A stretch of 57,923 bases of DNA from a bacterium (GTDB taxonomy: Bacteria > Patescibacteriota > Minisyncoccia > UBA6257 > GWB1-50-10), in the NCBI GenBank assembly GCA_021824045.1, contig JAKALR010000002.1, positions 1 through 57,923 on the forward strand. Reading direction: 5' to 3'. Positions 4,421 to 50,589 of this stretch are shown piece by piece; the stretch's first letter is position 1, and each line of letters begins with the position of its first letter. Below the pieces are notes generated by a model. The model worked only from the letters and a program-made list of their open reading frames with translations, was not told where the DNA came from and did not search any database. A program made the translations under genes and the position numbers.

Positions 4421-4438
4421 CGCCGGCTTCAGATTGTA

Positions 4439-4819
4439 TTAGCCTTGGTTAAACGGATTGGTTGGGGTAGATCCGGCACTCTGACCCATAAAGGTTATGA
4501 TCAAGGACACGATGCCTTTCGCGAGTAAGCCCAACACGACGGCGATGATAGCGAACGTGATCATTGACTTCGCTTTCTTGACTTTCGCGTCGTCGCCGCC
4601 CGCGGTGATATAGCTGAAAGCCGCAATGAGGATCAGGACGACCGCGGCAGCGAGCAAAATGCCGAGAATCCAACTTGCGATGGTGCTGATGATCTGGATG
4701 ATGCCGCCGTAGGTCGTTATGCCCGACGGGACCGTGACCTGCGCCAATGTCAAAAGCGGCAAAGCGCCAACGCCGTATGCCAATACTTTAATGAACTTCT
4801 CTAAATTTAGCTTTTTCAT
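4439..4819 (-). CDS. VirB2/TrbC-like pilin paralog P3
   Basis: Signal-like N-terminus plus core ILLAAAVVLILIAAFSYITAGGDDAKVKKAKSMITFAIIAVVLGLL. Confidence 0.7.
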   Translation of the reverse strand: MKKLNLEKFIKVLAYGVGALPLLTLAQVTVPSGITTYGGIIQIISTIASWILGILLAAAVVLILIAAFSYITAGGDDAKVKKAKSMITFAIIAVVLGLLAKGIVSLIITFMGQSAGSTPTNPFNQG

Positions 4820-4882
4820 GATGTTATTTTCTTATCCCCCATGAGGATGTACGACCTTTTCTCTGCTTATCTAAACAGGAGA

Positions 4883-5272
4883 TTAACCGCTGAGTATCTT
4901 CTGTACGATGCTTATTATACCACTTCCTACGAGGATTATACCATAGCCCACTGCCGTGTAAAGAATAGTTTTCTTGCCTTTTTCGAACTTCGCGGGCTCG
5001 CCGCCGGAAACCAATATCTGAATGCCACCCACGATGACCATGAAAGCGGCAATCGGCGATCCGGCCATAATGAGCCACTGCATGATGTTCTGCAAAACAC
5101 TTCCGATATCGCTGTTGGCGCTCCCCAGAGGATTGATAAGGGTGATATTGACAGCGCTCGGACTCGGCGGATTGAGATCGGCGAGAACGATACTGCCCGA
5201 GGTGAAGATGAAGATGACGGCAATGAGAAACGCGAATTTTTTTATCCCGTTAGAAACAAAAAGTTTCTTCAT
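4883..5272 (-). CDS. VirB2/TrbC-like pilin paralog P4. Start is placed at the ATG inside the upstream repeat element; the ORF stays open to 5365
   Basis: MKKLFVSNGIKKFAFLIAVIFIFTSGSIVLA reads as a signal peptide. Core is FMVIVGGIQILVSGGEPAKFEKGKKTILYTAVGYGIIL. There is no ATG directly after the element (ATA instead). Confidence 0.6.
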   Translation of the reverse strand: MKKLFVSNGIKKFAFLIAVIFIFTSGSIVLADLNPPSPSAVNITLINPLGSANSDIGSVLQNIMQWLIMAGSPIAAFMVIVGGIQILVSGGEPAKFEKGKKTILYTAVGYGIILVGSGIISIVQKILSG

Positions 5273-5350
5273 AAGCCATTGCTTACGAAGCGCGGTTGAC
5301 TCGACTTCTTTTGTAATCATTTTTTCCATAGGTTTGTGGTTTCTCACGGG
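5246..5350 (-). mobile_element. Family-1 TIR element, subtype B (105 bp), in frame with P4
   Basis: TIRs CCCGTGAGAAAC (coding-strand upstream arm) and GTTTCTAACGGG (gene-proximal arm). The internal sequence is homologous to copies 6188, 7607 and 29320. Confidence 0.75.
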
Positions 5351-5380
5351 ATTCATTGATTTCATTATACCAAAAGAATA

Positions 5381-6187
5381 TTACCAAGAACCCTCCGCTC
5401 CGCCGAATGGACCGGAATGTGCTCCGTTGGTGGACATCTGAATGCAGGAACCATTCGCCTCGCAATCGGCCTGAGTCGTATAACAAGTATAAATCGTTGA
5501 GCTGCCAAAGGTAACAGACGAGGTTTGAACTGCCCAAACCTGCTCTGGGGAAACGGCCGGCTTGCCGCATGCCGACTTCGACCCCGCATATATCGCCGCA
5601 TTGCTACAGAATGTTCCCGAAAAGTCGCTCAAGCTCCACGTGACTCCGGTATTTGAGCAGGCGTAATTGCCATTGCCGGCAACCTTCATATAGGTGCTTG
5701 AGGAGTTTTGAAGACCAGGCGCGGAATTGATCGGCTGGAGCTGCTGGTTGTGCGTGCAGGAGATTTGATCCCACGGAAACGCGGAGCTGCCGGTCAAGAA
5801 CCGGATTACCGTCGAGACGATGATCCACGAAAGGAGAGCGATCGCGACGCCCGTCACCGCTTTGATGAGGGTTTTCTGCCCCTTCTTGAACGTATTCTCG
5901 TTTCCCGTCGCGATGATCATCGTGATGCCGCCGATCACGATCATGAGAGTTCCGATGACGAGGGAGAACTTGAAGAGCATCTGGATGATGTTGTTCGTGA
6001 CGATGATGGCGTCGCAGAAATCGCAGGGGCCCACCGGGCCGCCCGTCGTGCTCTGGGCCGCGCAGCTCGTGTTGGTCCAAATGCCCGTGCCCTGGGCAAG
6101 CGCGAGTCCGGAACTCGACAAAAAGAGAATTATAAAAAATCCGAAAGCGGATGTGATTGCCAGTTTTGCTGTGAACCTTCTCTTCAT
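5381..6187 (-). CDS. VirB2/TrbC-like pilin paralog P5 with Cys-containing N-region and long Cys-rich C-terminal extension
   Basis: Signal-like N-terminus. Core is LVIGTLMIVIGGITMIIATGNENTFKKGQKTLIKAVTGVAIALL. The roughly 135 aa tail has multiple Cys. Confidence 0.65.
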   Translation of the reverse strand: MKRRFTAKLAITSAFGFFIILFLSSSGLALAQGTGIWTNTSCAAQSTTGGPVGPCDFCDAIIVTNNIIQMLFKFSLVIGTLMIVIGGITMIIATGNENTFKKGQKTLIKAVTGVAIALLSWIIVSTVIRFLTGSSAFPWDQISCTHNQQLQPINSAPGLQNSSSTYMKVAGNGNYACSNTGVTWSLSDFSGTFCSNAAIYAGSKSACGKPAVSPEQVWAVQTSSVTFGSSTIYTCYTTQADCEANGSCIQMSTNGAHSGPFGGAEGSW

Positions 6188-6293
6188 CCCGTTAGAAATA
6201 AAACACTTTCTTCATAAGCAATTGCCTATGATGCATGATTAGCTCGACTTGATAAATGGCCATCTTTTTCATAAGGTTGTGATTTCTTACGGG
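6188..6293 (-). mobile_element. Family-1 TIR element, subtype B (106 bp), fills the SBP-P5 spacer
   Basis: TIRs CCCGTAAGAAAT / ATTTCTAACGGG. The upstream ATGAAT overlaps the SBP stop (TAATGAAT). The gene-proximal TIR abuts the P5 ATG at 6187. Confidence 0.75.
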
Positions 6294-6298
6294 ATTCA

Positions 6299-7606
6299 TT
6301 AGAATCCGCTATTCATTATACTCGTCACCTGGCCTTCTGCCTGCTTCACGGCGTTTTCCGGGGTGCTTTGGCTGGTTACGTACGCATCGATCATTTGTGA
6401 GAGAACGTTATTAATTGAGCTCCGTTGCGGCCCATACCACGACCGGGCGTAGAGAGCCTGCTTCGCGAAAACCGAAAGAGACGGATCATTCAGGGAGGCG
6501 TTGATTAGGGAAAGGAGCGCCGGAGGATTGCCGGAAGCTTTCAGATATAAGTCGGCGGAAGTTTGGTTGGCGGCCATGAATTGTATGAACTGCCAATCCA
6601 GCGTTTGGTATCTCGACTGGCGGGACACCACGTAGCCGGAATAGTTCGGATACGCGACGTAGACCGTGGATGACGCCGGCTGGGGCATCGGCGCGACGCC
6701 GTAATTCAAGAACGAGTTCTTCGCCTTCAACTGGCTCAGGGCCGATTCATAATCAAAAATCATCGCGACTTTGTTTCCCGCGAACGCGTCCAAGGAGTCA
6801 GGCATATTGTAATTCCAGGTATAGAGTTTGTTTGTGGGATTTGAGAATTGCGCGTAGAACTGCAGGGCACTAAATCCCGTCGGGGAAGCGAACGTCGCCT
6901 GGTTCGTCGAGGGATTCGTCATCGCCGTGCCGGTCTGGAGCATGAGGAGCGACAGGAGATCGGGAGCGTGGTCGATGTTCACGGCGGATGTTCCGATGGC
7001 CGCCGCCGACTGGTTCACGGTGCCGGTCGAAGAAATCTCTGTCAGGGACGGGATTATGCTGTCAAAGCTTTGCCAGGTTGTCGGCGGATAGACGATACCC
7101 GCCTTAGCGAAGAGATCCTTGTTATACAAAAGAGCCATGGTATCCACGGAAAGCGGCAGCCCGTAGACATATCCTCCGGAGACGAAGTCCTGCGAAACCA
7201 CCTGCGGGAAGTATTGCTGCAGCATGAAGGGTGAAAGTTGGGCCGGGTTTGCGGGGACGATCTTGTTCAAATACGCGGGAAGTTCCGTCGAGGGAATCAT
7301 GAAAATATCCGGCGATTGCCCCGACGCCATGGCCTCGAGGAGCGCCTGGGAATAGATCGTGTAATCACCGAATGACCGGACGTTCACCTTGACGTTGGGA
7401 TAGGTCGCCTTGAAAGAAGATATGATTTTGTCGTAGAAGGATGGCTGGTCGCCGTACACCCACATCGAGAGATTTCCCGCGATGTTCGCCGGGTTCGTCG
7501 TTGAGGTCTTCGCGCCCGGGAGGATACCCGCGAGAATGAGGAGGAGAACGATAACGCCGAGGCCGATGCCTCCGAAAATCAACAGTTTTGTTTTTGAGAG
7601 ATTCAT
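6299..7606 (-). CDS. Extracellular solute-binding protein (ABC-type, family 1-like)
   Basis: 435 aa with an N-terminal TM/signal. Overall resembles sugar-type SBPs. No permease or ATPase gene is adjacent. Confidence 0.6.
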   Translation of the reverse strand: MNLSKTKLLIFGGIGLGVIVLLLILAGILPGAKTSTTNPANIAGNLSMWVYGDQPSFYDKIISSFKATYPNVKVNVRSFGDYTIYSQALLEAMASGQSPDIFMIPSTELPAYLNKIVPANPAQLSPFMLQQYFPQVVSQDFVSGGYVYGLPLSVDTMALLYNKDLFAKAGIVYPPTTWQSFDSIIPSLTEISSTGTVNQSAAAIGTSAVNIDHAPDLLSLLMLQTGTAMTNPSTNQATFASPTGFSALQFYAQFSNPTNKLYTWNYNMPDSLDAFAGNKVAMIFDYESALSQLKAKNSFLNYGVAPMPQPASSTVYVAYPNYSGYVVSRQSRYQTLDWQFIQFMAANQTSADLYLKASGNPPALLSLINASLNDPSLSVFAKQALYARSWYGPQRSSINNVLSQMIDAYVTSQSTPENAVKQAEGQVTSIMNSGF

Positions 7607-7712
7607 CCCGTTAGAAATAAAGCGCCTTTTCCATAAGAGATTGCCTATGATGCGCGACCGACTCGACTTCTTTCGTGACCATCCTTTTCATAAGTTTGCG
7701 ATTTCTCACGGG
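7607..7712 (-). mobile_element. Family-1 TIR element, subtype B (106 bp), fills the gyrA-SBP spacer
   Basis: TIRs CCCGTGAGAAAT / ATTTCTAACGGG. The element begins 2 nt after the gyrA stop and ends at the SBP ATG (7606). Confidence 0.75.
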
Positions 7713-7714
7713 AT

Positions 7715-10159
7715 TTACAGGCATACAATGCCGACGAGCTTATCTCCTTTGTCCAAATTCATAATCTTGACTCCTTGGGTCGCTCTCCCGAGGATGCGCA
7801 CGTCTTTGAGGGGTATCTTGATGGCCTGTCCTTTCGAAGAGAAGGCGAGGAGTTCCATAATGTCGTCTCCCACGACGTGGGCGCCGATCACGACGCCGGT
7901 TTTTTCGGTGATATTCGCCGTCTTGATCCCGGAACCTCCCCTCCGTTGTATTTTATACTCCTTGAGGTTGGTTTGCTTGCCGAAGCCGTTCGCGGTCACG
8001 ACCAAAAGTTTCGACGTGGCAATCGATTTCGTGGGCACGATATCGGCGCCGCTCACGGTGTCGCTCTTCTTGAGACTGATGGCTTTCACGCCGCCGGCGG
8101 TTCTCCCCATGCTCCGGATGTCCTTTTCCTTGAATCGGATTGCTTGGCCCGAAGTCGTGGTGAGAATCACCTCGTCGTTTCCTTCGGAGAGTTTTACCCA
8201 GAGAAGTGCGTCGTCGCCTCCGAGCTTCACGGCAATGATGCCGGTCCGCCGGACGTTTCCGAAATCCCCGAGAAGCGTTTTCTTGATGATCCCCTTTCGG
8301 GTGATCATCACAAGGAAGCCTTCCGTCGTGTCTTTGGGGTAAGAAATAATCGCGCTCACCTTCTCGGTCGTCGGCACCTCAAGGAAGTTATAGATTGATT
8401 TCCCCTTCGAAGTGCGCGACGCTTCCGGTATCTCGTATGCCTTGGTCTGGAAAGCCCTCCCCTTGTTGGTGAAGAAGAGAATGTTGTCGTGCGTGGAGGC
8501 GTAAATAATCTGGGAAATCTTGTCTTCTTCCTTTAATTCAGCGCCAATGAGCCCCTTCCCGCCCCGCTTCTGGGCGCGGAACGTTTCTGGCGGCATCCGC
8601 TTGATGTAGCCGTCTTCGGAAATGGCAACAATGGAATCGCCTTCGGGAATGAGATCTTCCTCGTTGAACTCCTTGAGTCCTCCGGCAACCAGTTTTGTTT
8701 TCCGTCCGCTCACGAACGTTTTTTTCAGGTATTCCAAATCAGCTTCGATGATGGCGAGAATTCGCTTCGGATCCTTGAGGATGATCTTGAATTCCGCGAT
8801 CATTGTTTTCTTTTCCTTGAGTTCGTCTTCGAGTTTGATCCGCTCCAGGGCGGCCAGGGATTGCAGTTTCATTTCCAGTATCGCGTCGGCTTGGAGCGCC
8901 GAGAGTTTGAAATTTTTCATCAGGTTCACCTTGGCGGTTTCCCGGTCCTTGGATTTTTTGATTGTCGCGATGATCTTGTCGATGACATCGAGCGCGGTGA
9001 CCAATCCTTCCAGGATGTGCGCCCGCTCCTCCGCTTTCCTGAGATCGAACTCGGTCCTCCGCTTGATGATTAATTTTCGATGGTCGAGATAGTATGCCAG
9101 GACGTCTTTCAGGGAAAGCACCTGCGGCTGGATGCCTCCGACGAGGGCCAGCATGTTGTAGTAGAAATTCTTCTGCAGCTCGGTGTATTCGAAGAGCTGG
9201 TTCAGGATTTTTTGGGGGTTCGCGTCGGTCTTGAGTTCGATGACGATTCGAAGCCCTTCCCGGTCCGATTCATCCCGCACATCCCGGATGTTTTCTATTT
9301 TCTTTTCCTGCACCAGGTCGGCGATTTTCGTGATGAGATCCGATTTATTGACCTGATACGGGATCTCCGTGATGATAATTTGAAAACTCCCGCTCTTTCG
9401 CTCTTCAATCTCTGCCTTGGCGCGCATCGTGATGGATCCTTTGCCGGTTGAATACGCTTCTTCGAGTGATTTCTTGCCGTAGACAATTCCTCCCGTCGGG
9501 AAGTCGGGTCCCTGAATGAATTGCATGAGGTCTTTCACGGTCGCGTCCGGGTGCCGGGAGAGATGGATGACTGCGTCGGCAACTTCGCCGAGATTGTGGG
9601 GCGGGATTGAAGTCGCCATGCCGACGGCGATGCCGACGGTGCCGTTCAGGAGCAAATTGGGAAGTTTCGCGGGGAGGAATTGCGGCTCCTCGCGGGTCGA
9701 GTCATAGTTGGGTATCCAATTAACCGTTTCCTTCTCGATGTCCTCGAGCATTTCTTCGGCGATCCGCGAGAGCCGCGCTTCGGTGTATCGCATGGCGGCC
9801 GGGCTGTCGCCGTCGACGGATCCCCAGTTCCCCTGGCCGTCGATCAGCGGGTAGCGGAGGGAAAAATCCTGGGCCATGCGGGCCAGGGCGTCGTAGACCG
9901 CCATGTCGCCGTGCGGATGGTATTTGCCGAGTACTTCTCCCACGACATTCGCGGATTTTTTGAATTTGGCGCTGTGGGTGAGGCCGATGTCCCACATTGC
10001 CCAGAGGATTCTCCGTTGCACCGGCTTCAATCCGTCGCGGACATCCGGCAACGCGCGGGAAACGATGACGGACATCGCGTAATCGAGATAGCTTTCGGAA
10101 AGTTCCGCGGTTATTTCCTTATCTTCTATTTTTCCTTGTTCCCTTTTTTCGTCTTCCAT
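7715..10159 (-). CDS. gyrA: DNA gyrase subunit A
   Basis: 814 aa. N-terminus has [26 protein letters not shown] and KYHPHGD, with C-terminal beta-pinwheel repeats. Confidence 0.95.
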
Positions 10160-10253
10160 GCCGAGTATTTCCTCTTTCCCTTATTATCGGCGATTGCAGC
10201 CGAAGAATCAATATCAAAACAAGAAAAATACGCTGAGCGATGACTCGGAAAGA

Positions 10254-10313
10254 CGAAAAAGTGGGTAAGACTTGGCCAAGCGGCCCGGAGCGCACACTTT
10301 TTCGGCTTGCCGG
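10254..10313. repeat. 60 nt palindromic repeat, copy 1 (second copy at 18466-18526)
   Basis: CGAAAAAGTGGGTAAGAC..GGCCAAGCGGCC..GAGCGC.CACTTTTTCGGCTTGCCG. Outer stem is CGAAAAAGTG/CACTTTTTCG. Confidence 0.7.
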
Positions 10314-14748: not shown

Positions 14749-14807
14749 TATTGAGGAGGATTGCATGAGGGAAGTTTTTCATTGACAAAGGCAGTCCGCG
14801 GATTTAC

Positions 14808-14907
14808 CCCGTTAGATTTTGCGGCTTTTTGTTTTCGGGGCAAAGTTGAAAAGTGAGCTTTGTTGTGGTTCAATGAGAGCCATACCCCCGAAGGGAAATC
14901 TAACGGG
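14808..14907 (+). mobile_element. Family-1-related TIR element, divergent subtype D (about 100 bp)
   Basis: TIRs CCCGTTAGATTT / AAATCTAACGGG, flanked by TTTAC on both sides. It ends about 20 nt upstream of the ATG at 14928. Confidence 0.6.
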
Positions 14908-14927
14908 GTTTACCTTGAAAGATACGC

Positions 14928-17635: not shown

Positions 17636-18463
17636 ATGGTGATCGATGGCAGGAAAATAGCGGCGGAGATCGTCGCGAAACTGAAACAAAAACCCGTGCC
17701 GCAGAAGTATCTGGCAGTTTTTTTGGTCGGCAGTGACCCGTCATCGGTAGGCTTCATCAAACAAAAGGAAAAGCTGGCCAAAGAACTTGGTGTCGATTTT
17801 CGCCTCTATAAATATAATGAGTCGACAACGCAGGACGAGCTCCGGAAAGAAATCCATAAGATCGGCGACGGGAAACCGTGCGGCGGCATTATTGTGCAGC
17901 TCCCGCTTCCCGGCTCGGCCGATCCGCAGTACGTTCTCAACGCCATGCCGCGGGAAAAGGATATTGACGTTTTGGGCGAGCGCGCTCTCGGCGCATTTTA
18001 CGCCGGCAGAAATATCATTTATCCTCCGTCCGTTGAGGTGGTGAAGGAGATAGTGGAAATTGAAAATTGCAAAATTGAAAATTGTACTGTTGCCGTAGTC
18101 GGCTTGGGCAAGCTTGTCGGCAAGCCCGTCCAAACGTGGCTCACGGGAAGATCGAAAGAAATCTCCCTCATCGATGAAGGGGGAAACTTTGATGTGTTAA
18201 AAAACGCCGATATCGTTGTTTGCGGTACGGGTGTTCCGGGACTCATCAAGCCCGAGATGCTCAAAGAGAACGCGCTCGTCATAGACTTCGGGTACGGTCT
18301 GAGCAGCGGAAAGCCCTCCGGCGATTTCGATGCCGACGAATTAAAAATTAAAAATGTAAAACTAAAAATTAGTTACACGCCGACGCCGGGTGGCACCGGC
18401 CCAATCTTGGTGGCGAAGATTTTCGAAAACTTCTATTCCCTAACCAAGGAGAAGACTCGGTAA
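17636..18463 (+). CDS. folD: Bifunctional methylene-THF dehydrogenase / methenyl-THF cyclohydrolase
   Basis: VIDGRKIA..., LPLP, VVGLGKLVGKP, TPTPGGTGP. Start is set at ATG 17636 rather than the TTG at 17630. Confidence 0.9.
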   Translation: MVIDGRKIAAEIVAKLKQKPVPQKYLAVFLVGSDPSSVGFIKQKEKLAKELGVDFRLYKYNESTTQDELRKEIHKIGDGKPCGGIIVQLPLPGSADPQYVLNAMPREKDIDVLGERALGAFYAGRNIIYPPSVEVVKEIVEIENCKIENCTVAVVGLGKLVGKPVQTWLTGRSKEISLIDEGGNFDVLKNADIVVCGTGVPGLIKPEMLKENALVIDFGYGLSSGKPSGDFDADELKIKNVKLKISYTPTPGGTGPILVAKIFENFYSLTKEKTR

Positions 18464-18465
18464 GG

Positions 18466-18526
18466 CGAAAAAGTGGGTAAGACCGGCCAAGCGGCCTTGG
18501 AGCGCGCACTTTTTCGGCTTGCCGAG
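18466..18526. repeat. 60 nt palindromic repeat, copy 2
   Basis: Near-identical to 10254-10313. It lies between the convergent folD and recA genes. Confidence 0.7.
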
Positions 18527-18534
18527 TTTTCTTG

Positions 18535-23173: not shown

Positions 23174-23617
23174 TTAAGGTACAAAATTTCTGTTAAAAAA
23201 ACCACTTTTGTATAACCTATGAAGAAATTTAGTCTTTTCGCTCGTATCTTCGTCTCCCATTTTTTCGAGCCATTCCTTGAACTGCTTGCCCTTGTTCCCA
23301 TGCAATTTGTTATAAAAGAATGGAATTATTATGTTCTTGATTTGCGGGAATTCTCTAACTATAAGCATTGCCTGGCTGCCATGGTTTGGTTTCCTGGTTG
23401 ATGGGGAATAATAGTTATAGACTCTATTTGTTAATCCAAGCTTGTTTCTGACGGATTTTATCAGATCTTCGTCGCGTTCATGCATCTTTAGTGCAAACGC
23501 AGGGACTTTAACTTTTTTAATAGTTCCATCTTTTAATCTTGTGCTGGTTGTGGAGAAAGTAAAAGTACCTTCGCCTTCGACGAGACCTCTGATATATTCA
23601 TCGCTCAAAACCCCCAT
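23174..23617 (-). CDS. LAGLIDADG-family homing endonuclease-like protein (single motif), free-standing
   Basis: 147 aa. YIRGLVEGEGTF matches the LAGLIDADG motif. The gene sits in visibly AT-richer DNA than its neighbours. Confidence 0.65.
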   Translation of the reverse strand: MGVLSDEYIRGLVEGEGTFTFSTTSTRLKDGTIKKVKVPAFALKMHERDEDLIKSVRNKLGLTNRVYNYYSPSTRKPNHGSQAMLIVREFPQIKNIIIPFFYNKLHGNKGKQFKEWLEKMGDEDTSEKTKFLHRLYKSGFFNRNFVP

Positions 23618-25636: not shown

Positions 25637-25792
25637 CTTGTCTTTTTTGCGGGGTTGTGGTAGAGTATATACATCAAGGCCGCTCATTCGAGTGGCTGTC
25701 GTTTTTAAAGGTCCTTCCAGTTTGAAAATTTGGTCATTGAAAATTGATTAAAAATTAAAAATTGGAGATTAAAAATTTTTAACGCTATGGAT

Positions 25793-25914
25793 CCCGTTAG
25801 AAATCGCGGACGCGGATCAAATAAGAAATATGAATAAAAAATCAAATAAAAAGGTCAAAATCAAAAACAATGGATGTGATGCGCTTTGCGCGTCCGCGTC
25901 CTATTTCTAACGGG
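25793..25914 (+). mobile_element. Family-1 TIR element, subtype C (122 bp), abutting the nusA start
   Basis: TIRs CCCGTTAGAAAT / ATTTCTAACGGG, extended by GGACGCGGA repeats. ATGGAT is present at 25787-25792 and 25915-25920. Confidence 0.75.
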
Positions 25915-27219
25915 ATGGATTTAAAAGAATTAGCAAGCGCGGTCGAGCAGATATCGGCCGAAAAAGGAATCGCCCCCGAGAAAGTTCTCGGAGCGATTGA
26001 ATCGGCTATCGCCGCCGCGTACAAAAAGGAGTATCGGAAGAAGTCGGAAGTCATTCGGGCCAAGTTCAATCTGAAAACCGGAGAACTGGAATTCTTCCAG
26101 GTGAAAGCCGTCGTTGATCCGTCGGAGGTTACAATCGTCGAAGAGGAGGAGGGACCGGTCGAAAAGCCCGCCGACGCTAAGGCTGTGGCGGATAAGCCCG
26201 AAAAGGCAGAGGGGGAAGAAACACTCCCGCGCTTCAACGCGGATCGGCAGATCCTCGCGGAGGACGCGAAGAAAATAAAAGCGGACGCTAAATCCGGCGA
26301 CGAGCTGGAGTTCCCACTCGAGGGGAAGAGCGACTTCGGTCGCATCGCGGCCCAAACCGCCAAGCAGGTGGTTCTGCAGTCCATTCGCGAAGCGGAGCGT
26401 TCTTCCATTAAGGATGAGTTCTCGAGCAAGGAAGGAGAAATCATGAGCGGGCAAATCCAGCGGTTTGAGCGCGGGAACGTGTACGTGAACCTCGGACGCG
26501 CCTTGGGAATTATGTATCCCAATGAAAGCATCCCGGGAGAACATTACCGGGTCGGCGATCGAATGCGGTTCTATGTCCTGGCCGTTCAGGATGACGCCCG
26601 GCGTCCGGGCATCGTTTTATCGCGTTCGCACCCGAACTTCGTCAGGAAACTTTTCGAACTTGAAGTTCCGGAAATAGCGGACGGAACCGTCGTTATTAAG
26701 GAGATTTCACGGGAAGCGGGTTCGCGCACCAAAGTCGCCGTCGCCTCCAATGAAGAGGGCATCGATCCGGTGGGAGCCGCCGTCGGCCAGCGGGGGACGC
26801 GGGTGATGGCGGTCACGAACGAACTTGGCAATGAGAAAGTTGATGTCATCGAATGGTCCGATGATCCGGCGAAATTCATCCCGAGTGCTCTCTCGCCGGC
26901 GAAGGTGAAATCAATCGAGGTGTTGCCGAGGAGGGAAGCGAGGGTTCTGGTCCCCGAGGATCAGTTGAGCTTGGCTATCGGCAAGGGCGGGCAAAACGTC
27001 CGGCTCGCCGCGAAATTGACCGGCTGGAAAATTGATGTCCGCTCTCAATCAAATCCGGAAGAAGTCCAGGAGGGCGGTATCGCGGCCAGTGAGGTAAAGC
27101 ACGGGGGAGGAGAAGAAGCGGCGAGTGAAGCGATCGAACCCGCCGCCCACGATGACGAAGACGAAGACAATCCGAAACTGGACGTTGAAGTTTTAAATAA
27201 GGCAGTCGAAGAAAAATAA
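25915..27219 (+). CDS. nusA: Transcription termination/antitermination factor NusA with acidic C-terminal tail
   Basis: [19 protein letters not shown], an S1 domain, and KH domains ([22 protein letters not shown]). Start is set after the repeat element. Confidence 0.92.
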
Positions 27220-29240: not shown

Positions 29241-29278
29241 AGACAGGTGGTATACTATAGTATACCACCTGTCTTTTA
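29241..29278 (+). terminator. Rho-independent terminator (perfect 34 bp palindrome plus T-tract)
   Basis: AGACAGGTGGTATACTA/TAGTATACCACCTGTCT followed by TTTT. Confidence 0.8.
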
Positions 29279-29319
29279 TGCGTCGGATTCTTTAGTATAG
29301 AAGGTAATACGCTATAGAT

Positions 29320-29425
29320 CCCGTTAGAAACCGCAAACTTATGGAAAAAATAATTACGAAAGAAGTCGAACTAGCCGCGCATGATGCGCCATCGCTTGCG
29401 AAGAATGCGTTTTGTTTCTAACGGG
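29320..29425 (+). mobile_element. Family-1 TIR element, subtype B (106 bp), abutting the murD start
   Basis: TIRs CCCGTTAGAAAC / GTTTCTAACGGG. The internal sequence is homologous to copies 5246, 6188 and 7607. Confidence 0.75.
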
Positions 29426-30871
29426 ATGAATTTCAAGGACAAGAAAGTTTTAGTGATGGGGCTCGGGACCCTGGGCGGCGGGATCGCCGCGGCAAAGTGG
29501 TTTGTGCGGCAGGGCGCGCGGGTCACCGTGACCGACACGCGGCCGGAGAAGAATCTCGCGGCCTCGGTGAGGGCGCTCGGCGGAGCGGCGAAGAAAATCA
29601 CCTTCATTTTCGGAGAACATCGGGAAGAGAATTTCAAGGAAAATGATGTCATTGTCGTGAACCCGGCCGTTCCGCGGGAAAGCAGATATCTCGCGATCGC
29701 GAAAAAAAACCGGAAACTCCTGGTGAACGACGCTCGGGTTTTTTTTGATGTCGTGAAAAACCCCGTCATCGCGGTCACGGGGACCCGGGGGAAAACGACG
29801 ACGACGAACTGGATAGCCCATTTTCTAAAAGTGAAAAACGGGAATGTCGTCGCGGCCGGGAATTCTTCCGATGTCGCTCTTTTGGATCTCGCGGATAAGC
29901 TGAACGATAAAAAAGAGCCGGTAGTCGTCGAGCTTTCGTCGTGGCAATTGGAGCTTTTGCCGGGAGCACGGCGCGCGCCCGACATCGCGGTTATCACCAA
30001 CCTCCATCCGGACCATTTGAACCGGTATCACGGGATTAAAGCGTACGCCCTCGCCAAGGCGAATATTTTCCGGGGACAGAAGAGGAGCCAAAAATTGATC
30101 CTGAACGGCGACAGTCCATGGACGGAATTCTTTTTGCGATTGCGGCCGAAATCGTCGATCTTTTTCTTTTCTCTCCGGCAGTTGCCGAAAAACAGGAACG
30201 GAATTTTCCTGAAAGAGGGAGTAATTTTCTTCCGGTTCGGGGGAGTGTCCGCGCCGGTGGTCGCGAAAGAAGCCGTCTCGAGTGTCGCGGGGAAAGGGGA
30301 GCATAACGTCGCGAATTTCATGGCCGCAGCGCTTGCCGCGCATCTCGCGGGCGTTCCGTGGTCCGCGATAGCGCGAGCGGCGGGAAAACTGCCGCAGATA
30401 CGATATCGAGAGGAAATTGTTGTACAAAAAAAGAATTTCACGGTGGTAAACGACTCCACAGCCACTTCGCCCGACGCCGTCATTGCCGCCATCCGCCGCT
30501 TTAAGAGCCGAGGTGATTTGATTCTCATAACCGGCGGGACGGATAAAAATCTCGATTTTGAACAACTTGCCGAAGAAATAAAAAAGACGCTCCCGCCGGA
30601 AGACGTTTTTTTGTTGAACGGCAGCGCCACAAGAAAACTTGTAACTGAGTTGAAAAAGATGAAGTATTTTAATGAACAAAAACCTCAGCTTTTCGAAAAC
30701 CTCGAAGATATTCTAAGGGAAATTAAGTCCCTATACGCTATACCCCACACCCTAACCTCTCGTATCATTCTCTTTTCTCCCGGTGCCGCGAGTTTCGAAA
30801 AATTCAAGAATGAATTCGACCGCGGGGAAAAATTCGATGGATACGCGAAAAAGGTATTCAGACAGAAATAG
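29426..30871 (+). CDS. murD: UDP-N-acetylmuramoylalanine--D-glutamate ligase
   Basis: VMGLGTLGGGIAAAKWF and TGTRGKTTT. Start is set at MNFKDKK after the repeat element. Confidence 0.88.
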   Translation: MNFKDKKVLVMGLGTLGGGIAAAKWFVRQGARVTVTDTRPEKNLAASVRALGGAAKKITFIFGEHREENFKENDVIVVNPAVPRESRYLAIAKKNRKLLVNDARVFFDVVKNPVIAVTGTRGKTTTTNWIAHFLKVKNGNVVAAGNSSDVALLDLADKLNDKKEPVVVELSSWQLELLPGARRAPDIAVITNLHPDHLNRYHGIKAYALAKANIFRGQKRSQKLILNGDSPWTEFFLRLRPKSSIFFFSLRQLPKNRNGIFLKEGVIFFRFGGVSAPVVAKEAVSSVAGKGEHNVANFMAAALAAHLAGVPWSAIARAAGKLPQIRYREEIVVQKKNFTVVNDSTATSPDAVIAAIRRFKSRGDLILITGGTDKNLDFEQLAEEIKKTLPPEDVFLLNGSATRKLVTELKKMKYFNEQKPQLFENLEDILREIKSLYAIPHTLTSRIILFSPGAASFEKFKNEFDRGEKFDGYAKKVFRQK

Positions 30872-39924: not shown

Positions 39925-39975
39925 AGCCGCTTATTGGCGGATTTTTATTTTTCATGTACCATTGAGTAAATGGAT

Positions 39976-40078
39976 CCCGTTAGAAATAAACACGCAATTT
40001 ATTTATATCGTTATTATGAATCGGTTCAATGCAACAGCTTTTCCAGTCGGCCGAGTTATTTAGTTTATTTCTAACGGG
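39976..40078 (+). mobile_element. Family-1 TIR element, subtype A (103 bp), abutting the glyQS start
   Basis: The 16 bp TIRs are identical to those of copy 3689-3791. ATGGAT is present at 39970-39975 and 40079-40084. Confidence 0.8.
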
Positions 40079-41416
40079 ATGGATATTGGGGAAAAAATAA
40101 CTGCTCTCGCGAAGCGCCGGGGGTTCGTATACCCGGGTTCCGAGATCTACGGCGGGCTTGCCGGCACGTGGGATTACGGGCCTTTGGGCGTCGAATTGAA
40201 GCGCAATTTGAAGAACGAGTTTTGGAAATCGATGGTGCAGGAGCGGAGCGATATCGTGGGACTCGACGCCGCGATCATCATGAGCCCGAAGGTGTGGGAA
40301 GCCTCCGGCCACTTGACGTCGTTTTCCGATCCGCTCGTCGAGTGCAAAAAATGCCATCACCGTTTCCGCGCTGATACCCTGATTTCTAAACCCGGAACCC
40401 CAAACCCTGTGGCTTGCCCCGATTGCGGCGGGGAACTCACCGCCCCCAAGCAGTTCAATTTGATGGTGGAAACCTATCTCGGCGTCATTGAGGGAGAAAA
40501 ACTGAAGACATATCTCCGGGGAGAGATTACGCAAGGCGTGCACGTCAATTTCAAAAACATCCTCTCGTCCACGCGCGTCAAAATTCCCTTCGGCGTCGCG
40601 CAAATCGGCAAAGCATTCCGGAACGAGATAACACCCGGCGGTTTCACGTTCCGATCGCGCGAGTTCGAACAAATGGAACTCCAGTACTATGTGAAGCCGG
40701 ACATGAAGGAATCCATGAAGCAGTTTGAGTATTGGAAAAAGGAAAGGATGGCTTGGTATGTCTCGCTCGGCATGAAGAAGGGGAACTTGCGGTTCAAGGA
40801 GCATGCCAAGGACGAGTTGGCGCATTATGCAAAAGCCGCTTTTGATATCGAGTACTATGCCGAAGGGGAATGGAAAGAAATGGAAGGAATCCACCACCGC
40901 GGCGACTGGGACGTGCGGCGCCACCAGGAGTTTTCGGGCGAGGATATGACGTACCTCGACGAAGAGGCCAAGGAAAAATTCCTTCCCTTCATCATTGAAA
41001 CATCCGGCGGCGTCGATCGGGCGGCGCTCTTCTTCCTCATGGACGCCTATGAAGAGGAAAAAACAAAAGATGGGGAAACGAGGACGGTGCTCCATTTGCA
41101 TCCCAAGCTTGCGCCGTACAAAGTTGCCGTGTTTCCGCTCTTGGCGAATAAACCAAAGCTCGTCGACGTCGCAAGGAAAATTTATGACGATCTGAAAAAA
41201 GATATGATGGTTGCCTGGGACGACCGGGGGAACATCGGCAAGCGGTACCGCGCGCAGGACGAAGCCGGTACCCCCTATTGCGTTACCGTCGATTTCGACA
41301 GTTTGGAAAGTCCGCCGGCCGGCGGAGATGTCACGGTCCGCGACCGCGATACCATGAAACAGGAACGGGTGAAGATTAAGGCACTCGGCGATTATTTGAA
41401 AGAAAAATTAATATAA
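40079..41416 (+). CDS. glyQS: Glycine--tRNA ligase (dimeric class II type)
   Basis: RRGFVYPGSEIYGG, FRNEITPG..FRSREFEQME, and GGVDRAALFFL. Confidence 0.93.
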   Translation: MDIGEKITALAKRRGFVYPGSEIYGGLAGTWDYGPLGVELKRNLKNEFWKSMVQERSDIVGLDAAIIMSPKVWEASGHLTSFSDPLVECKKCHHRFRADTLISKPGTPNPVACPDCGGELTAPKQFNLMVETYLGVIEGEKLKTYLRGEITQGVHVNFKNILSSTRVKIPFGVAQIGKAFRNEITPGGFTFRSREFEQMELQYYVKPDMKESMKQFEYWKKERMAWYVSLGMKKGNLRFKEHAKDELAHYAKAAFDIEYYAEGEWKEMEGIHHRGDWDVRRHQEFSGEDMTYLDEEAKEKFLPFIIETSGGVDRAALFFLMDAYEEEKTKDGETRTVLHLHPKLAPYKVAVFPLLANKPKLVDVARKIYDDLKKDMMVAWDDRGNIGKRYRAQDEAGTPYCVTVDFDSLESPPAGGDVTVRDRDTMKQERVKIKALGDYLKEKLI

Positions 41417-47757: not shown

Positions 47758-50589
47758 ATGGCGAAGTACGATTTCAAGAAGATAGAGAAAAAGTGGCAGA
47801 AAGAATGGGAACGGCAGAGTATCGGGAAAGCTGTCGATTTCTCCAAGAAGAAAAAGTGGTATTCGCTCATCGAGTTCCCGTACCCGTCCGGCCAGGGGCT
47901 CCACATCGGCCATATCCGGAGCCTTACGGCCATGGATATCATATCTCGGAAGCGGCGGATGGAAGGATATAACGTGCTCTATCCGATCGGATGGGACGCG
48001 TTCGGACTCCCGACGGAGAACTATGCCATCAAGACCGGCGTCGATCCGCGTGTTGCGACGAAGAAAAATACCGACACCTTCCGGAAGCAGCTGAAGGGGT
48101 TGGGATTTTCATTCGATTGGAGCCGCGAAGTGAATACGACTGATCCGAAGTATTACCGGTGGACACAGTGGCTCTTCCTTCAATTTTTCAAAAAAGGTTT
48201 GGCGTACAAAGCGGAGATCGACATCAATTGGTGCCCGAATGACAAAATCGGCCTCGCGAACGAGGAGGTGATCGGAGGCAAATGCGAACGGTGCGGCGCG
48301 GAAGTCGAAAAGCGGAAGAAGGCGCAGTGGATGCTCAAGATCACGGCATACGCCGATAAGCTCCTGAAGGGCTTGGAGAAGGTGGACTACTTGGACGAAA
48401 TCAAGGCGCAACAAATAAACTGGATCGGCAAATCGGAAGGAGCTCTCATTGACTTCGAGTTACCGGATGCAAGTTACAAGATACAAGTTTTCACAACAAG
48501 ACCCGATACGCTCTTCGGGGCGACGTACCTTGTTTTGGCGCCCGAGCATGAGCTCGTCGCGAAACTCAAAAATCACATTTCAAACTTCAAAGAAGTCGAG
48601 GCGTACGTGAAAACCGCGAGAAAAGAAACGGAAGAGGAGCGAACGGCTGAAAACAAAGAAAAGACCGGCGTGGAACTCAAGGGCGTGAAAGCGGTGAATC
48701 CGGCGACCGGCGGGGAGTTGCCGGTTTGGATCGCCGACTATGTTCTCGCCGAATACGGCACGGGCGCCATCATGGCGGTTCCCGCGCACGACGAGCGCGA
48801 TTATGATTTTGCGAAGAAATTCAATTTGCCGGTCACGTATGTCATTGCTCCATATTTTCTCGACGAGAAAGATCCGCCGCGGAAGGGAATGCCCATGGTA
48901 TTCCGGAAAGCGGTGAACTGCTACATAAAAAACCCGAAGACCGGAAAATATCTTTTTCTCGAGTGGAAAGCAACGTCGTGGAAAGGGCCGGTTTCGGGTG
49001 GCATCGAAGAGGGCGAGGATGCCGTTGGAGCAAGCTTGCGCGAAATCCGCGAGGAAACCGGCTACACGCACCTGAGATTTAAGCGATATCTCGGGAGTCC
49101 CATCCGTGCCGATTTCTATCATCCTGCCAAGAAGGAAAACCGCGCTGCGGAATTCATCGGCCTCTTGTTTGAGCTTGAGGATGAAACACGCGAAGCGGTC
49201 GAGGATGGCGAAAGAGATCGCCATGTGCCGGTATGGATTCCCGAAGAAGAAGCCTTGAAATTTCTGAATACCGGCATGACCTTCTTTGAAAGAATTTTCG
49301 AGCACAATCTCTGTTATACCGACGGCGGAAGATTGGTGAATTCAGGAAAATTCTCCGACATGGATTCCGAGAAGGCCAAAGGAGAAATCACGAAGTTCGT
49401 CGGGGGGAAGAAAACGGTGAACTATCACCTGCGCGACTGGGTCTTTTCGCGCCAAAGGTACTGGGGCGAGCCGATTCCAATCATTCACTGCGAAAAATGC
49501 GGGTATGTCCCCGTGCCGGAAAACAATCTGCCAGTTGTTCTTCCGTCCGTCAAAAACTACCAACCCCGCGACGACGGTGAATCGCCCTTGGCGTCTGTCT
49601 CCTCGTGGGTGAATGTGAAATGTCCGAAGTGTAAGAATCCCGCAAAGCGCGAGACGGACACGATGCCAAACTGGGCCGGATCGAGCTGGTATTTCTTGCG
49701 GTATGCGGATCCGAAGAATTCCAAAGAATTTGCTTCCATGAAAAAACTGAACTACTGGATGCCGATCGACTGGTACAACGGCGGCATGGAGCATGTAACA
49801 CTCCATCTGCTCTACTCGCGTTTTTGGAATATCTTTCTCCACGACCAGGGGCTCGTCCCAACAAGCGAGCCGTACCGGAAGCGGACGGCGCAGGGGATGA
49901 TTCTCGGGGAAGGAGGGGTCAAAATGTCCAAATCGAAAGGCAACGTCGTGAATCCCGATACCATCGTTCATGCCTATGGCGCGGACGTTGCGCGGATCTA
50001 TGAAATGTTCATGGGGCCTTTCGATCGGGCAATCGCCTGGGATGCAAAAGGGATCGAAGGAGTGAAGCGGTTCCTGTGGCGCGTGTGGGATATCGCCCGC
50101 GGCGAGAAGATTTCGAGAACGAAGAATGAAAAACTCGAGAAGCTTCTCGCCGCCACGGTGAAGAAGGTCGGGGAGGATATCGAGAAGATGGCTTTCCACA
50201 CGGCCGTGAGTGCCATGATGATTTTTATCAACGCCGCTGGCGACGAAGAAATCATACCCGTCCGCGTGTGGAGTGATTTCTTGAAAATTCTCGCCCCCTT
50301 CGCGCCGCACCTGGCAGATGAATTGTGGTACGAGCTGAAGAATAAGAAATCGGTGCATCTCGAATCGTGGCCCGCGTATGATCCAAAATTATTGAAGGAA
50401 GATACCGTTGAGATCGTTGTCCAGGTGAACGGTAAGCGGCGGGGAAGTGTCTTCGCGGCGGCGGATGCCGGCGAGGATGAAGTGAAAAAAGCGGCTTTGG
50501 GACTTCCGAACGTCGCAGCTGCGCTCGGTGGAGCCGCAGTGAAAAAGGTGGTATACGTTAAAGGGAGGATTATCAACCTCGTTATGTAA
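47758..50589 (+). CDS. leuS: Leucine--tRNA ligase with an inserted Nudix-like domain
   Basis: PYPSGQGLHIGH, an editing domain (TTRPDTLFGATY), and VKMSKSKGN. 943 aa. An extra segment at about 48850-49320 carries GGIEEGEDAVGASLREIREETGY. Confidence 0.93.
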   Translation: MAKYDFKKIEKKWQKEWERQSIGKAVDFSKKKKWYSLIEFPYPSGQGLHIGHIRSLTAMDIISRKRRMEGYNVLYPIGWDAFGLPTENYAIKTGVDPRVATKKNTDTFRKQLKGLGFSFDWSREVNTTDPKYYRWTQWLFLQFFKKGLAYKAEIDINWCPNDKIGLANEEVIGGKCERCGAEVEKRKKAQWMLKITAYADKLLKGLEKVDYLDEIKAQQINWIGKSEGALIDFELPDASYKIQVFTTRPDTLFGATYLVLAPEHELVAKLKNHISNFKEVEAYVKTARKETEEERTAENKEKTGVELKGVKAVNPATGGELPVWIADYVLAEYGTGAIMAVPAHDERDYDFAKKFNLPVTYVIAPYFLDEKDPPRKGMPMVFRKAVNCYIKNPKTGKYLFLEWKATSWKGPVSGGIEEGEDAVGASLREIREETGYTHLRFKRYLGSPIRADFYHPAKKENRAAEFIGLLFELEDETREAVEDGERDRHVPVWIPEEEALKFLNTGMTFFERIFEHNLCYTDGGRLVNSGKFSDMDSEKAKGEITKFVGGKKTVNYHLRDWVFSRQRYWGEPIPIIHCEKCGYVPVPENNLPVVLPSVKNYQPRDDGESPLASVSSWVNVKCPKCKNPAKRETDTMPNWAGSSWYFLRYADPKNSKEFASMKKLNYWMPIDWYNGGMEHVTLHLLYSRFWNIFLHDQGLVPTSEPYRKRTAQGMILGEGGVKMSKSKGNVVNPDTIVHAYGADVARIYEMFMGPFDRAIAWDAKGIEGVKRFLWRVWDIARGEKISRTKNEKLEKLLAATVKKVGEDIEKMAFHTAVSAMMIFINAAGDEEIIPVRVWSDFLKILAPFAPHLADELWYELKNKKSVHLESWPAYDPKLLKEDTVEIVVQVNGKRRGSVFAAADAGEDEVKKAALGLPNVAAALGGAAVKKVVYVKGRIINLVM

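Follow-up and report, generated by a model that had tools for sequence, protein, structure and literature searches.

Mobile hairpin elements that sit mostly on start codons in Patescibacteria and rebuild a start codon on their far side

Eight short repeat elements were detected in the window, the whole 57,923-nt stretch of Patescibacteriota DNA analysed here (contig JAKALR010000002.1). They are 100-122 nt long and bounded by CCCGTTAGAAAT/ATTTCTAACGGG, and seven of them abut a gene start. The first-pass annotation had reported that several copies are flanked on both sides by a hexamer, ATGRAT, containing the start codon; this observation is real, and every coordinate it gave was confirmed. ATGGAT lies at 39970-39975 and 40079-40084 (glyQS) and at 25787-25792 and 25915-25920 (nusA), whereas ATGAAT lies on the coding (minus) strand at 3797-3792 and 3688-3683. 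The copy at 6188-6293 has ATGAAT/ATGAAG, the copy near gyrA at 7607-7712 has GTAAAT/ATGAAT, and the murD copy has ATAGAT/ATGAAT. Two copies had been missed: 5246-5350 (ATGAAT/ATAAAA) and 14808-14907 (variant ends CCCGTTAGATTT, flanks ATTTAC/GTTTAC). The 12-nt end occurs 18 times in the window at up to 2 mismatches, a number that none of 100 shuffles reached.

Three copies lie on the forward strand at gene starts. Copy 8 (39975-40079; family B, 13-nt terminal repeats T-CCCGTTAGAAAT/ATTTCTAACGGG-A) is inserted at the glyQS start, with the target-site duplication (TSD) TGGA at 39971-39974 and 40080-40083 and the rebuilt ATG at 40079-40081. An upstream ORF of 34 codons (39970-40074, MDPVRNKH...LVYF*) opens at the original glyQS ATG and ends at a TAA inside the right terminal repeat, 4 nt before the rebuilt ATG, and a -10-like TACCAT, a leaderless-type promoter, lies 7 nt before this original ATG. 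Copy 6 (25792-25915; family C, 122+2 nt) lies at the nusA start, with TSD TGGA at 25788-25791 and 25916-25919 and two relayed small ORFs, 25787-25837 and 25830-25910, the second of which ends at the repeat's TAA. Copy 7 (29319-29426; family A) lies at the murD start, where the upstream TSD copy has decayed (TAGA, 29315-29318) while the downstream copy is TGAA (29427-29430), and an internal 26-codon ORF at 29341-29421 ends at the repeat's TAA.

Four further start-associated copies lie on the minus strand. Copy 4 (7606-7713; family A) lies between the gyrA stop and the solute-binding-protein gene, with TAAA at 7717-7714 and TGAA at 7605-7602; a 37-codon ORF at 7724-7611 opens at the native ATG, which overlapped the gyrA stop, and ends at the repeat's TAA 4 nt before the new ATG (7606-7604). 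Copy 3 (6187-6294; family A) lies at the start of a 268-aa pilin-like gene, with TGAA at 6298-6295 and 6186-6183 and a 35-codon ORF at 6299-6192 that ends at the repeat's TAA. Copy 1 (3688-3792; family B) lies at the start of a 91-aa pilin-like gene, with TGAA at 3796-3793 and 3687-3684 and a 34-codon ORF at 3797-3693 that likewise ends at the repeat's TAA. Copy 2 (5245-5351; family A, 105 nt between the flanks) lies in front of a pilin-like gene and differs in that the upstream TSD is TGAA (5355-5352) but the downstream copy is TAAA (5244-5241), so the junction reads ATA, not ATG; here the element is in frame and open, giving an N-terminally extended ORF (4883-5365). The eighth, copy 5 (14807-14908; family D, ends C-CCCGTTAGATTT/AAATCTAACGGG-G with compensatory changes), is intergenic, 20 nt upstream of the gene at 14928, with TSD TTTA at 14803-14806 and 14909-14912, and is not at a start codon.

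The flanking hexamer had been read as a possible 5-6 bp target-site duplication preferring ATGRAT or, speculatively, as matched take-off and landing sites for translational bypassing; this interpretation was partly supported, because the duplication is real but differs in length and composition, and bypassing is not supported. Comparison with orthologous loci lacking the element had been proposed as the check for a duplication, and such empty sites, each with a single copy of the motif, were found in relatives for six of the window copies, which proves insertion with target duplication. We denote loci retrieved from other genomes by L numbers. At glyQS, orthologs 83-87% identical (L121-L125) carry a single ATGGAT, the upstream atgtaccattgag in L121 is conserved with the window, and L126 also lacks the copy. 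At murD, L128 and L129 are empty, with a single ATGAAT or ATGGAC and TATAAT 5-9 nt upstream, whereas L127 (MurD 71% identical) has an element at the same position that is 82% identical, although the flanking intergenic DNA looks unalignable by eye. Two empty sites come from L131, whose ortholog is 94% identical: that of copy 3 is ggattctaATGAAaaagggg and that of copy 4 is gtatgcctgTAAAtctctc. The absence of two copies from L131 indicates recent activity. The empty sites of copies 2 and 1 are gatataatgaaatcaATGAAAAAAATAGCG (L130) and tataataaaaccaATGAACttgataaac (L132), respectively.

The duplication is not chance. In 89 start-associated copies from the window and over 100 other genomes, the central four flank bases were identical left and right in 60, compared to a mean of 31.5 and a maximum of 42 in 1000 shuffles of partners, and rare bases at position 4 were matched on both sides (G 9/10, C 5/6, T 1/1). 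Only positions 2-5 of the hexamer are duplicated: identity by position was 69, 80, 69, 70, 74 and 29 of 89 in the start class and 18, 41, 37, 34, 40 and 19 of 49 in the non-start class. The hexamer is composite, made of a native base, a 4-bp duplication (TNNR, usually TGAA or TGGA) and one element base. This last base, touching CCCG or CGGG, belongs to the element, as the two flanking bases pair as T-A or C-G in 89/89 start-class copies and are Watson-Crick in 46/49 non-start copies, and when the new start is GTG the left flank ends in C while the old start stays ATG. In L131, the T next to CCCG (copy 3) and the A next to CGGG (copy 4) are absent from the empty site. The A of the new ATG at copy 4 is thus element-derived, whereas its G comes from an A-to-G difference in the right TSD copy; the native start there was ATGCCTGTAAAT, which now opens the small ORF. 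We initially considered G-U wobble in the flanking pair as evidence of RNA-level selection, but it is explained by the purine at TSD position 4. The true terminal repeat is 13 nt, Y-CCCGTTAGAAAT, and the element's terminal purine plus the TG of the duplication recreates ATG or GTG.

The same ends occur in more than 100 species, mostly the ultra-small Patescibacteria. The non-Patescibacteria host labels (Planctomycetota, Omnitrophota, Deltaproteobacteria and Nitrospirae) rest on record titles only, and mis-binning was not excluded. In the window plus 120 loci from over 100 species we found 138 copies of 94-124 nt; all pair at repeat positions 1-5, 7-10 and 12, with isolated non-Watson-Crick pairs at positions 6 and 11, though the set was selected with up to 2 mismatches per arm. 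Of these, 89 (64%) sit exactly on a start codon, and in the window 6 of 14 genes beginning xTGAA carry a copy. The target is TNNR preceded by a purine, which ATGAA and ATGGA fit, as do GTAAA sites that are not start codons. Copies within a subfamily are related, so these counts are not independent events. One rival reading is a purely selfish miniature transposon without adaptation, in which the association follows only from a 5-nt target preference (purine-T-R-A-A, of which ATGAA is one form) plus loss of insertions inside genes, the downstream AUG is used directly or after RNA processing at the foot of the hairpin makes a new leaderless 5' end, and the small ORFs are incidental. In its favor, a 5-nt ATGAA target predicts about 60% of tolerated sites at gene starts in this compact genome (8.3% intergenic), close to the observed value, and by construction the repeat closes two frames near the junction and leaves the third in frame.

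However, the element is strand-biased relative to its host gene, which is not expected from a symmetric insertion without selection, and we consider the purely selfish reading unlikely. A TCCT bulge sits on the gene side 25 times against 1 (p = 8e-7), and interior similarity between copies was found in 16 pairs in the same orientation and 0 in the opposite one. ATG-initiated ORFs of at least 10 codons ending at the repeat's TAA, 4 nt before the rebuilt start, occur in 33/89 copies in the sense direction against 5/87 antisense (Fisher p = 3e-7), whereas the other two frames show no strand bias. Element length is 1 mod 3 in 44/89 copies, more often than expected (p = 0.002). In the window, six of the seven start-associated copies have such an ORF, and the seventh is copy 2, whose loss of the junction ATG and open in-frame fusion argues that ribosomes do read through from upstream. 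Nevertheless, 20 of 89 copies have lost the upstream start codon, 41 of the 69 that keep one have an early stop in that frame, and only about 45% of all start-associated copies have a long UAA-terminated ORF, so coupling cannot be the universal route. With regard to initiation context, a TAnnnT box lies 6-8 nt before the old ATG in 33/89 copies, and only 8/47 other window genes have an SD-like motif. No TAnnnT box lies at that spacing inside the element, including the 6-7 nt typical of the native leaderless promoters, and an internal promoter was rejected as a general mechanism. In-frame N-terminal extension as the rule was also rejected, since in-frame internal ATGs show no strand bias (20 against 20), and splicing or intron-like removal was rejected because copies are almost never inside ORFs and copy 2 is read through in frame.

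Programmed translational bypassing, in which ribosomes would start at the upstream AUG and hop over the hairpin to an identical landing site, fits the geometry of three window copies, where identical AUG-containing hexamers stand at the two feet of a 14-18 bp stem. Hexamer position 6 matches only at chance level (29/89), however, so full codon-2 identity is seen in only about a quarter of copies, and the upstream start is missing from the 20 copies noted above. The codon after the would-be take-off is always CCC and not a stop, and only two residues precede it, so a nascent-peptide signal is impossible. Many copies have an open frame running through the would-be gap to a conserved UAA, the opposite of a skipped gap, and the downstream ORF is complete from its own ATG or GTG and aligns from residue 1 with orthologs that lack the element. 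We regard bypassing as very unlikely. A cis-regulatory RNA hairpin (a thermosensor or protein-binding leader) hiding the start codon and recruited as a regulon signal, with mobility secondary, is similarly doubtful. The AU of the AUG is always paired at the stem base, 19 of 20 deviations at repeat positions 10-12 are two-sided, many copies have an internal partial copy of the right arm that could form an alternative 5' hairpin, and the murD copy shared with L127 is conserved relative to its diverged surroundings; as a caveat to the transposon reading, the co-varying arms could reflect selection for a hairpin rather than transposase binding. Yet the host genes are unrelated in function (pilins, NusA, MurD, GlyRS, S17 and a transporter subunit), close relatives lack the copies, the interior is highly variable, and no result suggests a binding protein or ligand. 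Only tRNAs reached the Rfam gathering score in the window, and a permissive scan of the glyQS copy (E up to 10) returned nothing meaningful.

No autonomous copy or transposase was found in the window, where about 50 ORFs were searched against Pfam, in about 1 Mb of retrieved loci, or among IMG/VR viral contigs, by searching for orphan ends and for inverted repeats 0.7-3 kb apart. Whole genomes were not scanned for ends more than 600 nt apart, so the existence of a cognate autonomous element is neither supported nor excluded by these searches. The PF04308 RNase H-like gene next to copy 5 was considered as the mobilizing enzyme but has no homolog in any of the other retrieved loci (L001-L132). 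We also considered a site-specific recombination cassette, in which the two 12-13-nt arms around the hexamer form a lox/dif-like site (arm, 4-6 bp core, arm) once the element is circularized, and a tyrosine recombinase supplied in trans inserts and excises it at sequences matching the core. Tandem copies do share a single hexamer between CGGG and CCCG (for example GTTCAC in L035 and ATTCAT in L007), giving exactly an inverted-arm, 6-bp spacer architecture, and the target resembles the flank sequence across copies. Against this, one interior family (B) has perfect duplications of two different cores, TGAA and TGGA, as expected if the repeat comes from the target, and the empty sites have no arm-like sequences. 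A 4-bp duplicated core does not match tyrosine recombinases (6-8 bp overlap) or serine recombinases (2 bp), no recombinase lies nearby, and the junction pattern was not found in viral contigs, making this reading improbable. Integron attC sites were rejected because the order of the GTT/AAC core sites is reversed.

We suggest with reasonable confidence that these are copies of a non-autonomous DNA transposon (a MITE) of about 95-125 bp that is tolerated, perhaps adapted, at start codons through translational coupling. After insertion the original start codon stays upstream with its promoter or coupling context, while the element's end and the duplicated TG rebuild a start directly in front of the intact reading frame. 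These genomes start translation mostly at the 5' end of leaderless mRNAs or by coupling to an upstream ORF, and only rarely through a Shine-Dalgarno site, so the inferred route is that ribosomes would still load at the original start and read into the element, melting the 14-18 bp hairpin that holds the new AUG. In many copies they would stop at the UAA built into the gene-side repeat and restart at the new AUG. Our analysis demonstrates the transposon anatomy, the 4-bp duplication, the empty sites, how the start codon is rebuilt, the strand bias and the enrichment of the UAA-terminated small ORF; that termination-reinitiation keeps the host gene expressed, and that a piggyBac/IS1380-like transposase moves the element, are inferences, made without transcript or ribosome data. 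More tentatively, the element may be a portable translational-coupling cassette that evolved to colonize start codons in genomes lacking Shine-Dalgarno-led initiation, its ends supplying the purine of a new start codon, a stop codon 4 nt upstream of it and an open frame continuous with the old start, so that any leaderless or coupled gene becomes a two-cistron relay. Because the hairpin would hide the new AUG until the small ORF is translated, hundreds of genes across Patescibacteria, including nusA, murD, glyQS and rpsQ, would then share one translational control point, and the element may be mobilized by a bacterial piggyBac-like enzyme capable of seamless excision.

Patescibacteria have tiny, tightly packed genomes in which mobile DNA is thought to be rare, yet here one family sits at about one copy per 7 kb and occupies the first codon of essential genes. 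It also offers a natural, replicated experiment on how these organisms start translation (leaderless starts, reinitiation after a short ORF, a hairpin-masked AUG), a question that has been hard to approach because so few of them are cultured. In practice, gene callers extend ORFs into the element: the window's MurD was called 15 residues too long, and an ORF opening at the in-frame ATG at 25870 inside the element would add 15 residues to NusA, so annotation pipelines for these phyla should mask the family. The family appears not to have been described before, as literature searches on the exact end sequence, on MITEs at start codons in CPR and on leaderless initiation in CPR, together with MITE surveys and a Patescibacteria review, turned up no description of it.

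Several known systems share some of these features. The T4 gene 60 and mitochondrial byp elements are short inserts with a hairpin and matching sequences at both feet that are also thought to be mobile (bioRxiv 10.1101/2022.08.31.505936; PMC5009743), but the defining features of bypassing were not observed here. Rickettsia palindromic elements are palindromic mobile elements tolerated inside essential genes of reduced genomes (PMC10969869), but they are translated in frame inside proteins, whereas here only a few copies are in-frame fusions (copy 2, L066 and L088) and the rest lie before the protein; in-frame fusion or read-through was seen in about six of our 138 copies. REPIN/RAYT systems have paired REP hairpins, no target duplication and a RAYT gene, whereas the 12-nt ends here are not themselves palindromic, a 4-bp duplication is present and no HUH gene lies in the window. 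Bacterial MITEs co-transcribed with genes, such as the Correia (CREE/NEMIS) elements of Neisseria, are also about 100-150 bp, with terminal inverted repeats, target duplication, many copies next to genes, hairpins in mRNAs and presence/absence differences between strains (PMC2649163; reviews PMC2229807 and PMC10969869). Correia elements, however, have 26-bp repeats, duplicate TA and act through promoters, IHF and RNase III, whereas here the repeats are 13 bp, the duplication is 4 bp (TNNR), most copies sit on a start codon that the element rebuilds, and many carry a UAA-terminated small ORF; the 2024 MITE review does not contain the phrase "start codon".

The ends resemble those of the piggyBac/IS1380 superfamily, which has a 4-bp duplication with T...A ends and termini that begin CCC...GGG and contain TAGA(AA). 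The piggyBac end is TTAA-CCCTAGAAAGATA (PMC7351741), ISEcp1 has the IRL CCTAGATTCTACGT with 5-bp repeats (PMC6061673), and the element here reads CCCGTTAGAAAT; some piggyBac elements use TAAA, GTAA or TCAA (PMC10813416). However, one extra base pair (T/A or C/G) lies between the duplication and CCC, and the target is not fixed as TTAA but reads TNNR (TGAA, TGGA, TAAA and others). No candidate gene for a DDD/DDE transposase of that family was found, a feature not assessed further here, so this is a resemblance and not a demonstrated membership. The logic of the insertion parallels that of the introner elements of algae and other eukaryotes, transposons that build a splice site from their target duplication (Huff, Zilberman and Roy 2016). 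In both, a non-autonomous DNA transposon becomes harmless, or near-neutral, inside a gene because an element end plus the target duplication recreates the signal the gene needs, but in introners this signal is a splice site and the element is removed from the RNA, whereas here it is a start codon and the element stays in the mRNA as a leader with a small ORF.

The hexamer repeats that the first-pass annotation described at the two ends of several elements, with the start codon inside them, are present in the sequence as described. We detected eight elements of 100-122 nt in the window, bounded by CCCGTTAGAAAT ... ATTTCTAACGGG, of which six had been listed before; the other two are a copy at 5246-5350 and a variant at 14808-14907. 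The 12-mer occurs 18 times at up to two mismatches, a number that none of 100 shuffles reached. Read in the direction of the adjacent gene, the left and right flanks are ATGAAT and ATGAAT for the copy at 3689, ATGAAT and ATAAAA for 5246, ATGAAT and ATGAAG for 6188, GTAAAT and ATGAAT for 7607, ATTTAC and GTTTAC for 14808, ATGGAT and ATGGAT for the nusA copy, ATAGAT and ATGAAT for the murD copy, and ATGGAT and ATGGAT for the glyQS copy. Seven of the eight end exactly where a gene begins, and these genes encode NusA, MurD, GlyRS, a solute-binding protein, and three small type IV secretion pilin-like proteins. The last three belong to a cluster of four or five such pilin-like genes at 3413-6187 on the minus strand; in the two relatives examined, several of these genes have their own TATAAT box 6-7 nt before the ATG, and the orthologs of the three element-bearing genes in these relatives (contigs L130 and L132) carry no element.

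A scan of a one-genome-per-species collection for the two 12-mers spaced 70-100 nt apart returned at least 120 loci. Most are from Patescibacteria of many lineages, including Saccharibacteria, Parcubacteria groups, Kazan, Doudnabacteria, Kaiserbacteria, and Jorgensenbacteria, while a minority carry the labels Planctomycetota, Omnitrophota, Deltaproteobacteria, or Nitrospirae, which we did not check. Together with the window this gives 138 copies, of which 89 abut an ORF of at least 50 codons whose ATG or GTG is the first base after CGGG. None was found in 2.9 million viral contigs. Other architectures of the same family were seen among the loci recovered (L042 at 3950-4015, L035 at 3882-3889, L007 at 7789-7796, and L080 near 1079): a mini-hairpin in which the left and right repeats are separated by 2 nt, lying between rpsS and rplV, and tandem copies that share one hexamer between CGGG and CCCG. 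L042 also has a full copy on the start of ribosomal protein S17. Longer members of 276-278 nt, with ends CCCGTTAGAGAT / ATCTCTAACGGG, were present at L035 3889-4164 and L085 1336-1613; these were not examined for coding remnants of a parent element.

Left/right identity across the hexamer is 69, 80, 69, 70, 74, and 29 of 89 in the start class and 18, 41, 37, 34, 40, and 19 of 49 in the other copies, so only positions 2-5 are duplicated. The central four bases are identical in 60/89 copies, whereas with shuffled partners the mean is 31.5 and the maximum 42. The bases touching CCCG and CGGG pair with each other, as T-A or C-G in 89/89 and as Watson-Crick pairs in 46/49. When the downstream start is GTG, the left flank ends in C while the upstream start stays ATG, an ATGAAC/GTGAAN pattern that occurs about ten times. 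The simplest parse is a 13-nt terminal repeat (Y-CCCGTTAGAAAT) and a 4-bp duplication of TNNR, with TGAA, TGGA, TGAG, and TGCG occurring at starts and TAAA/TTTA, TTCA, CATG, CTGA, CGAG, and others occurring elsewhere.

The comparison with loci lacking the element, which had been put forward in advance as the test of target duplication, was run on six window copies. For GlyRS, orthologs 83-87% identical have a single ATGGAT, and one of them keeps the upstream 'atgtaccattgag'. Several GlyRS orthologs (proteins P0005, P0007, P0025, P0026, and P0041) also carry in-frame inserts of 20-30 residues at two different positions, with similar peptides (…QNSKFEIRNS…, …IPNSKFQIPN…); in the ortholog locus L125 (around 1790-1890) the insert is encoded by AAATTC-rich repeats, so this may be another insertion family that is translated in frame. 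For MurD, the ortholog loci L128 and L129 have a single ATGAAT or ATGGAC with TATAAT 5-9 nt upstream, while L127, whose MurD protein is 71% identical, has a family-A element at the same position that is 82% identical, although the flanking intergenic DNA looks unalignable by eye. About 45 nt upstream of the murD element in the window, at 29241-29274, lies a perfect 34-bp palindrome, AGACAGGTGGTATACTA|TAGTATACCACCTGTCT, that contains an extended -10-like TGGTATACT on both strands and may be a bidirectional promoter or an operator.

The contig L131, whose solute-binding protein is 94% identical, lacks two copies. At 7607 the empty site reads gtatgcctgTAAAtctctc, where the window reads gtatgcctgTAAAt[element]aTGAAtctctc, and at 6188 the empty site reads ctaATGAAaaagggg, where the window reads ctaATGAAt[element]aTGAAgagaagg. 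Taken together, the L131 sites show that the T and the A next to the element core are not in the target, and the duplication is therefore 4 bp, not the 5-6 bp first proposed. At 7607 the new ATG is made of the element's A, the T of the duplication, and a G where the target has A. Copies 5246 and 3689 have empty sites in L130 and L132. Insertion with target duplication is therefore demonstrated, and the family has been active both recently and long ago in this lineage.

We next asked why the insertions fall on start codons. The window is 8.3% intergenic and has 379 intergenic TNNA sites and 25 gene starts of the form xTGNA, so a plain TNNA preference would put about 6% of tolerated insertions at starts, against 7/8 observed in the window and 64% overall. 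A purine is preferred before the duplication, A at starts and G in most GTAAA-class sites, and a 5-nt ATGAA-like target would predict roughly 60%. Six of the 14 window genes that begin xTGAA carry a copy. Target preference plus loss of insertions inside genes can thus account for the association with starts, but it does not account for the strand bias described below.

The DNA before the old (upstream) ATG often has a TAnnnT box 6-8 nt away (33/89), as in TATAAT-aaaacc-ATG and TACCAT-tgagtaa-ATG, which is the layout of leaderless genes. No such box lies at that spacing inside the element. Two window copies sit at starts that overlap the stop of the preceding gene, namely gyrA followed by the binding protein, and the binding protein followed by a pilin-like gene, and only 8 of 47 other window genes have an SD-like motif. 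So ribosomes reach these starts either at the 5' end of the mRNA or by coupling to an upstream ORF.

With symmetric ends, orientation should be random at insertion, but it is not. A TCCT bulge precedes the gene-side repeat 25 times and its mirror appears once (p = 8e-7), and interiors that resemble each other are in the same orientation relative to the gene in 16 pairs and opposite in none. Strand-specific interior motifs recur across subfamilies, for example at window 7650-7665 and 25855-25865 and in the loci L013, L024, L028, L099, and L111: AGTCGA/GGTCAAAAT (16:2 sense to antisense) and ATAGGGTTCGG (17:1), though our data do not show whether they act as RNA, peptide (…RIGFG…), or protein-binding DNA. 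The gene-side repeat contains TAA 4 nt before the rebuilt start, and ATG-ORFs of at least 10 codons ending at that TAA occur in 33/89 copies on the sense strand but in 5/87 on the antisense strand, which has the same terminal sequence (Fisher p = 3e-7). The other two frames show no strand difference. Length is 1 mod 3 in 44/89 copies (p = 0.002), which puts the old ATG in frame with the TAA.

In the window, six of the seven start-associated copies have such an ORF, with nusA using two overlapping small ORFs. The seventh copy (5246-5350) is 105 nt, open and in frame, and its junction codon has decayed to ATA, which makes sense only if ribosomes read through from upstream. Between the window and L127, the five differences in the first 11 codons of the murD small ORF are all synonymous, but the second half is not conserved, so this is a weak hint. 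ORF calls also run into the element (29381-30871 and 25870-27219): the public MurD call for this contig (P0121, 496 aa) starts at an in-frame ATG inside the element, 15 residues upstream of the conserved N-terminus, and the longest ORF for nusA likewise opens at an in-frame ATG at 25870 inside the element.

Each copy folds into a basal stem of 14-18 bp that includes the AU of the downstream AUG (z-scores -1.3 to -5.3). At repeat positions 10-12, 19 of 20 deviations are two-sided, which fits either selection for a hairpin or co-evolution of both ends with a lineage-specific transposase, two possibilities that we were not able to separate. Two other hairpins, at the ends of unrelated genes (10246-10312 and 18450-18532), share the arms CGAAAAAGTG / CACTTTTTCGGCTTGCCG and may represent a second small repeat family or a shared terminator. 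Elsewhere in the window, a free-standing LAGLIDADG homing-endonuclease ORF of 147 aa lies at 23174-23617 on the minus strand, with no rRNA or group I intron detected around it by Rfam. The leucyl-tRNA synthetase at 47758-50589 is 943 aa and has a NUDIX domain inserted at residues 382-500, whereas the syntenic ortholog in the related contig L126 is 795 aa and its Pfam listing shows no NUDIX hit.

The analysis establishes a MITE with 13-bp repeats and a 4-bp duplication, the rebuilt start codon, the retention of the old start with its initiation context, and the strand-biased small ORFs that end at a repeat-encoded UAA. From these we infer, without having observed it, that ribosomes load at the old start, melt the hairpin while translating, terminate at the UAA, and restart at the adjacent AUG. 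About 55% of start-associated copies lack a long UAA-frame ORF and 20/89 lack an upstream start, so direct initiation at the junction AUG must also be possible.

The interpretation offered in the first-pass annotation was thus partly supported: the target-site duplication holds, but the alternative of programmed translational bypassing, raised there as speculative, is not supported, because the features that define gene-60-type or byp-type bypassing are absent. Codon 2 matches at chance level, no stop follows the take-off codon, there is no room for a nascent-peptide signal, and the supposed gap is frequently an open frame ending at a conserved stop.

Literature searches for the end sequence, for MITEs at start codons, and for Patescibacteria repeats found no description of this family in the library searched. 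MITEs as such are already known; what is unusual here is the way in which this one is tolerated, by start-codon rebuilding plus a built-in coupling stop, and its breadth across Patescibacteria. No transposase was found in the sequences searched. The ends resemble those of piggyBac (TTAA-CCCTAGAAAGATA, PMC7351741) and of the bacterial IS1380 family (ISEcp1 IRL CCTAGATTCTACGT, 5-bp repeats, PMC6061673). One extra base pair separates the duplication from CCC, however, and the target is not fixed, so we record this resemblance as a lead and not as membership. The features shared are a CC(C)...TAGA terminus and a 4-bp T...A duplication, and IS1380 serves as outgroup in piggyBac phylogenies (PMC10813416).
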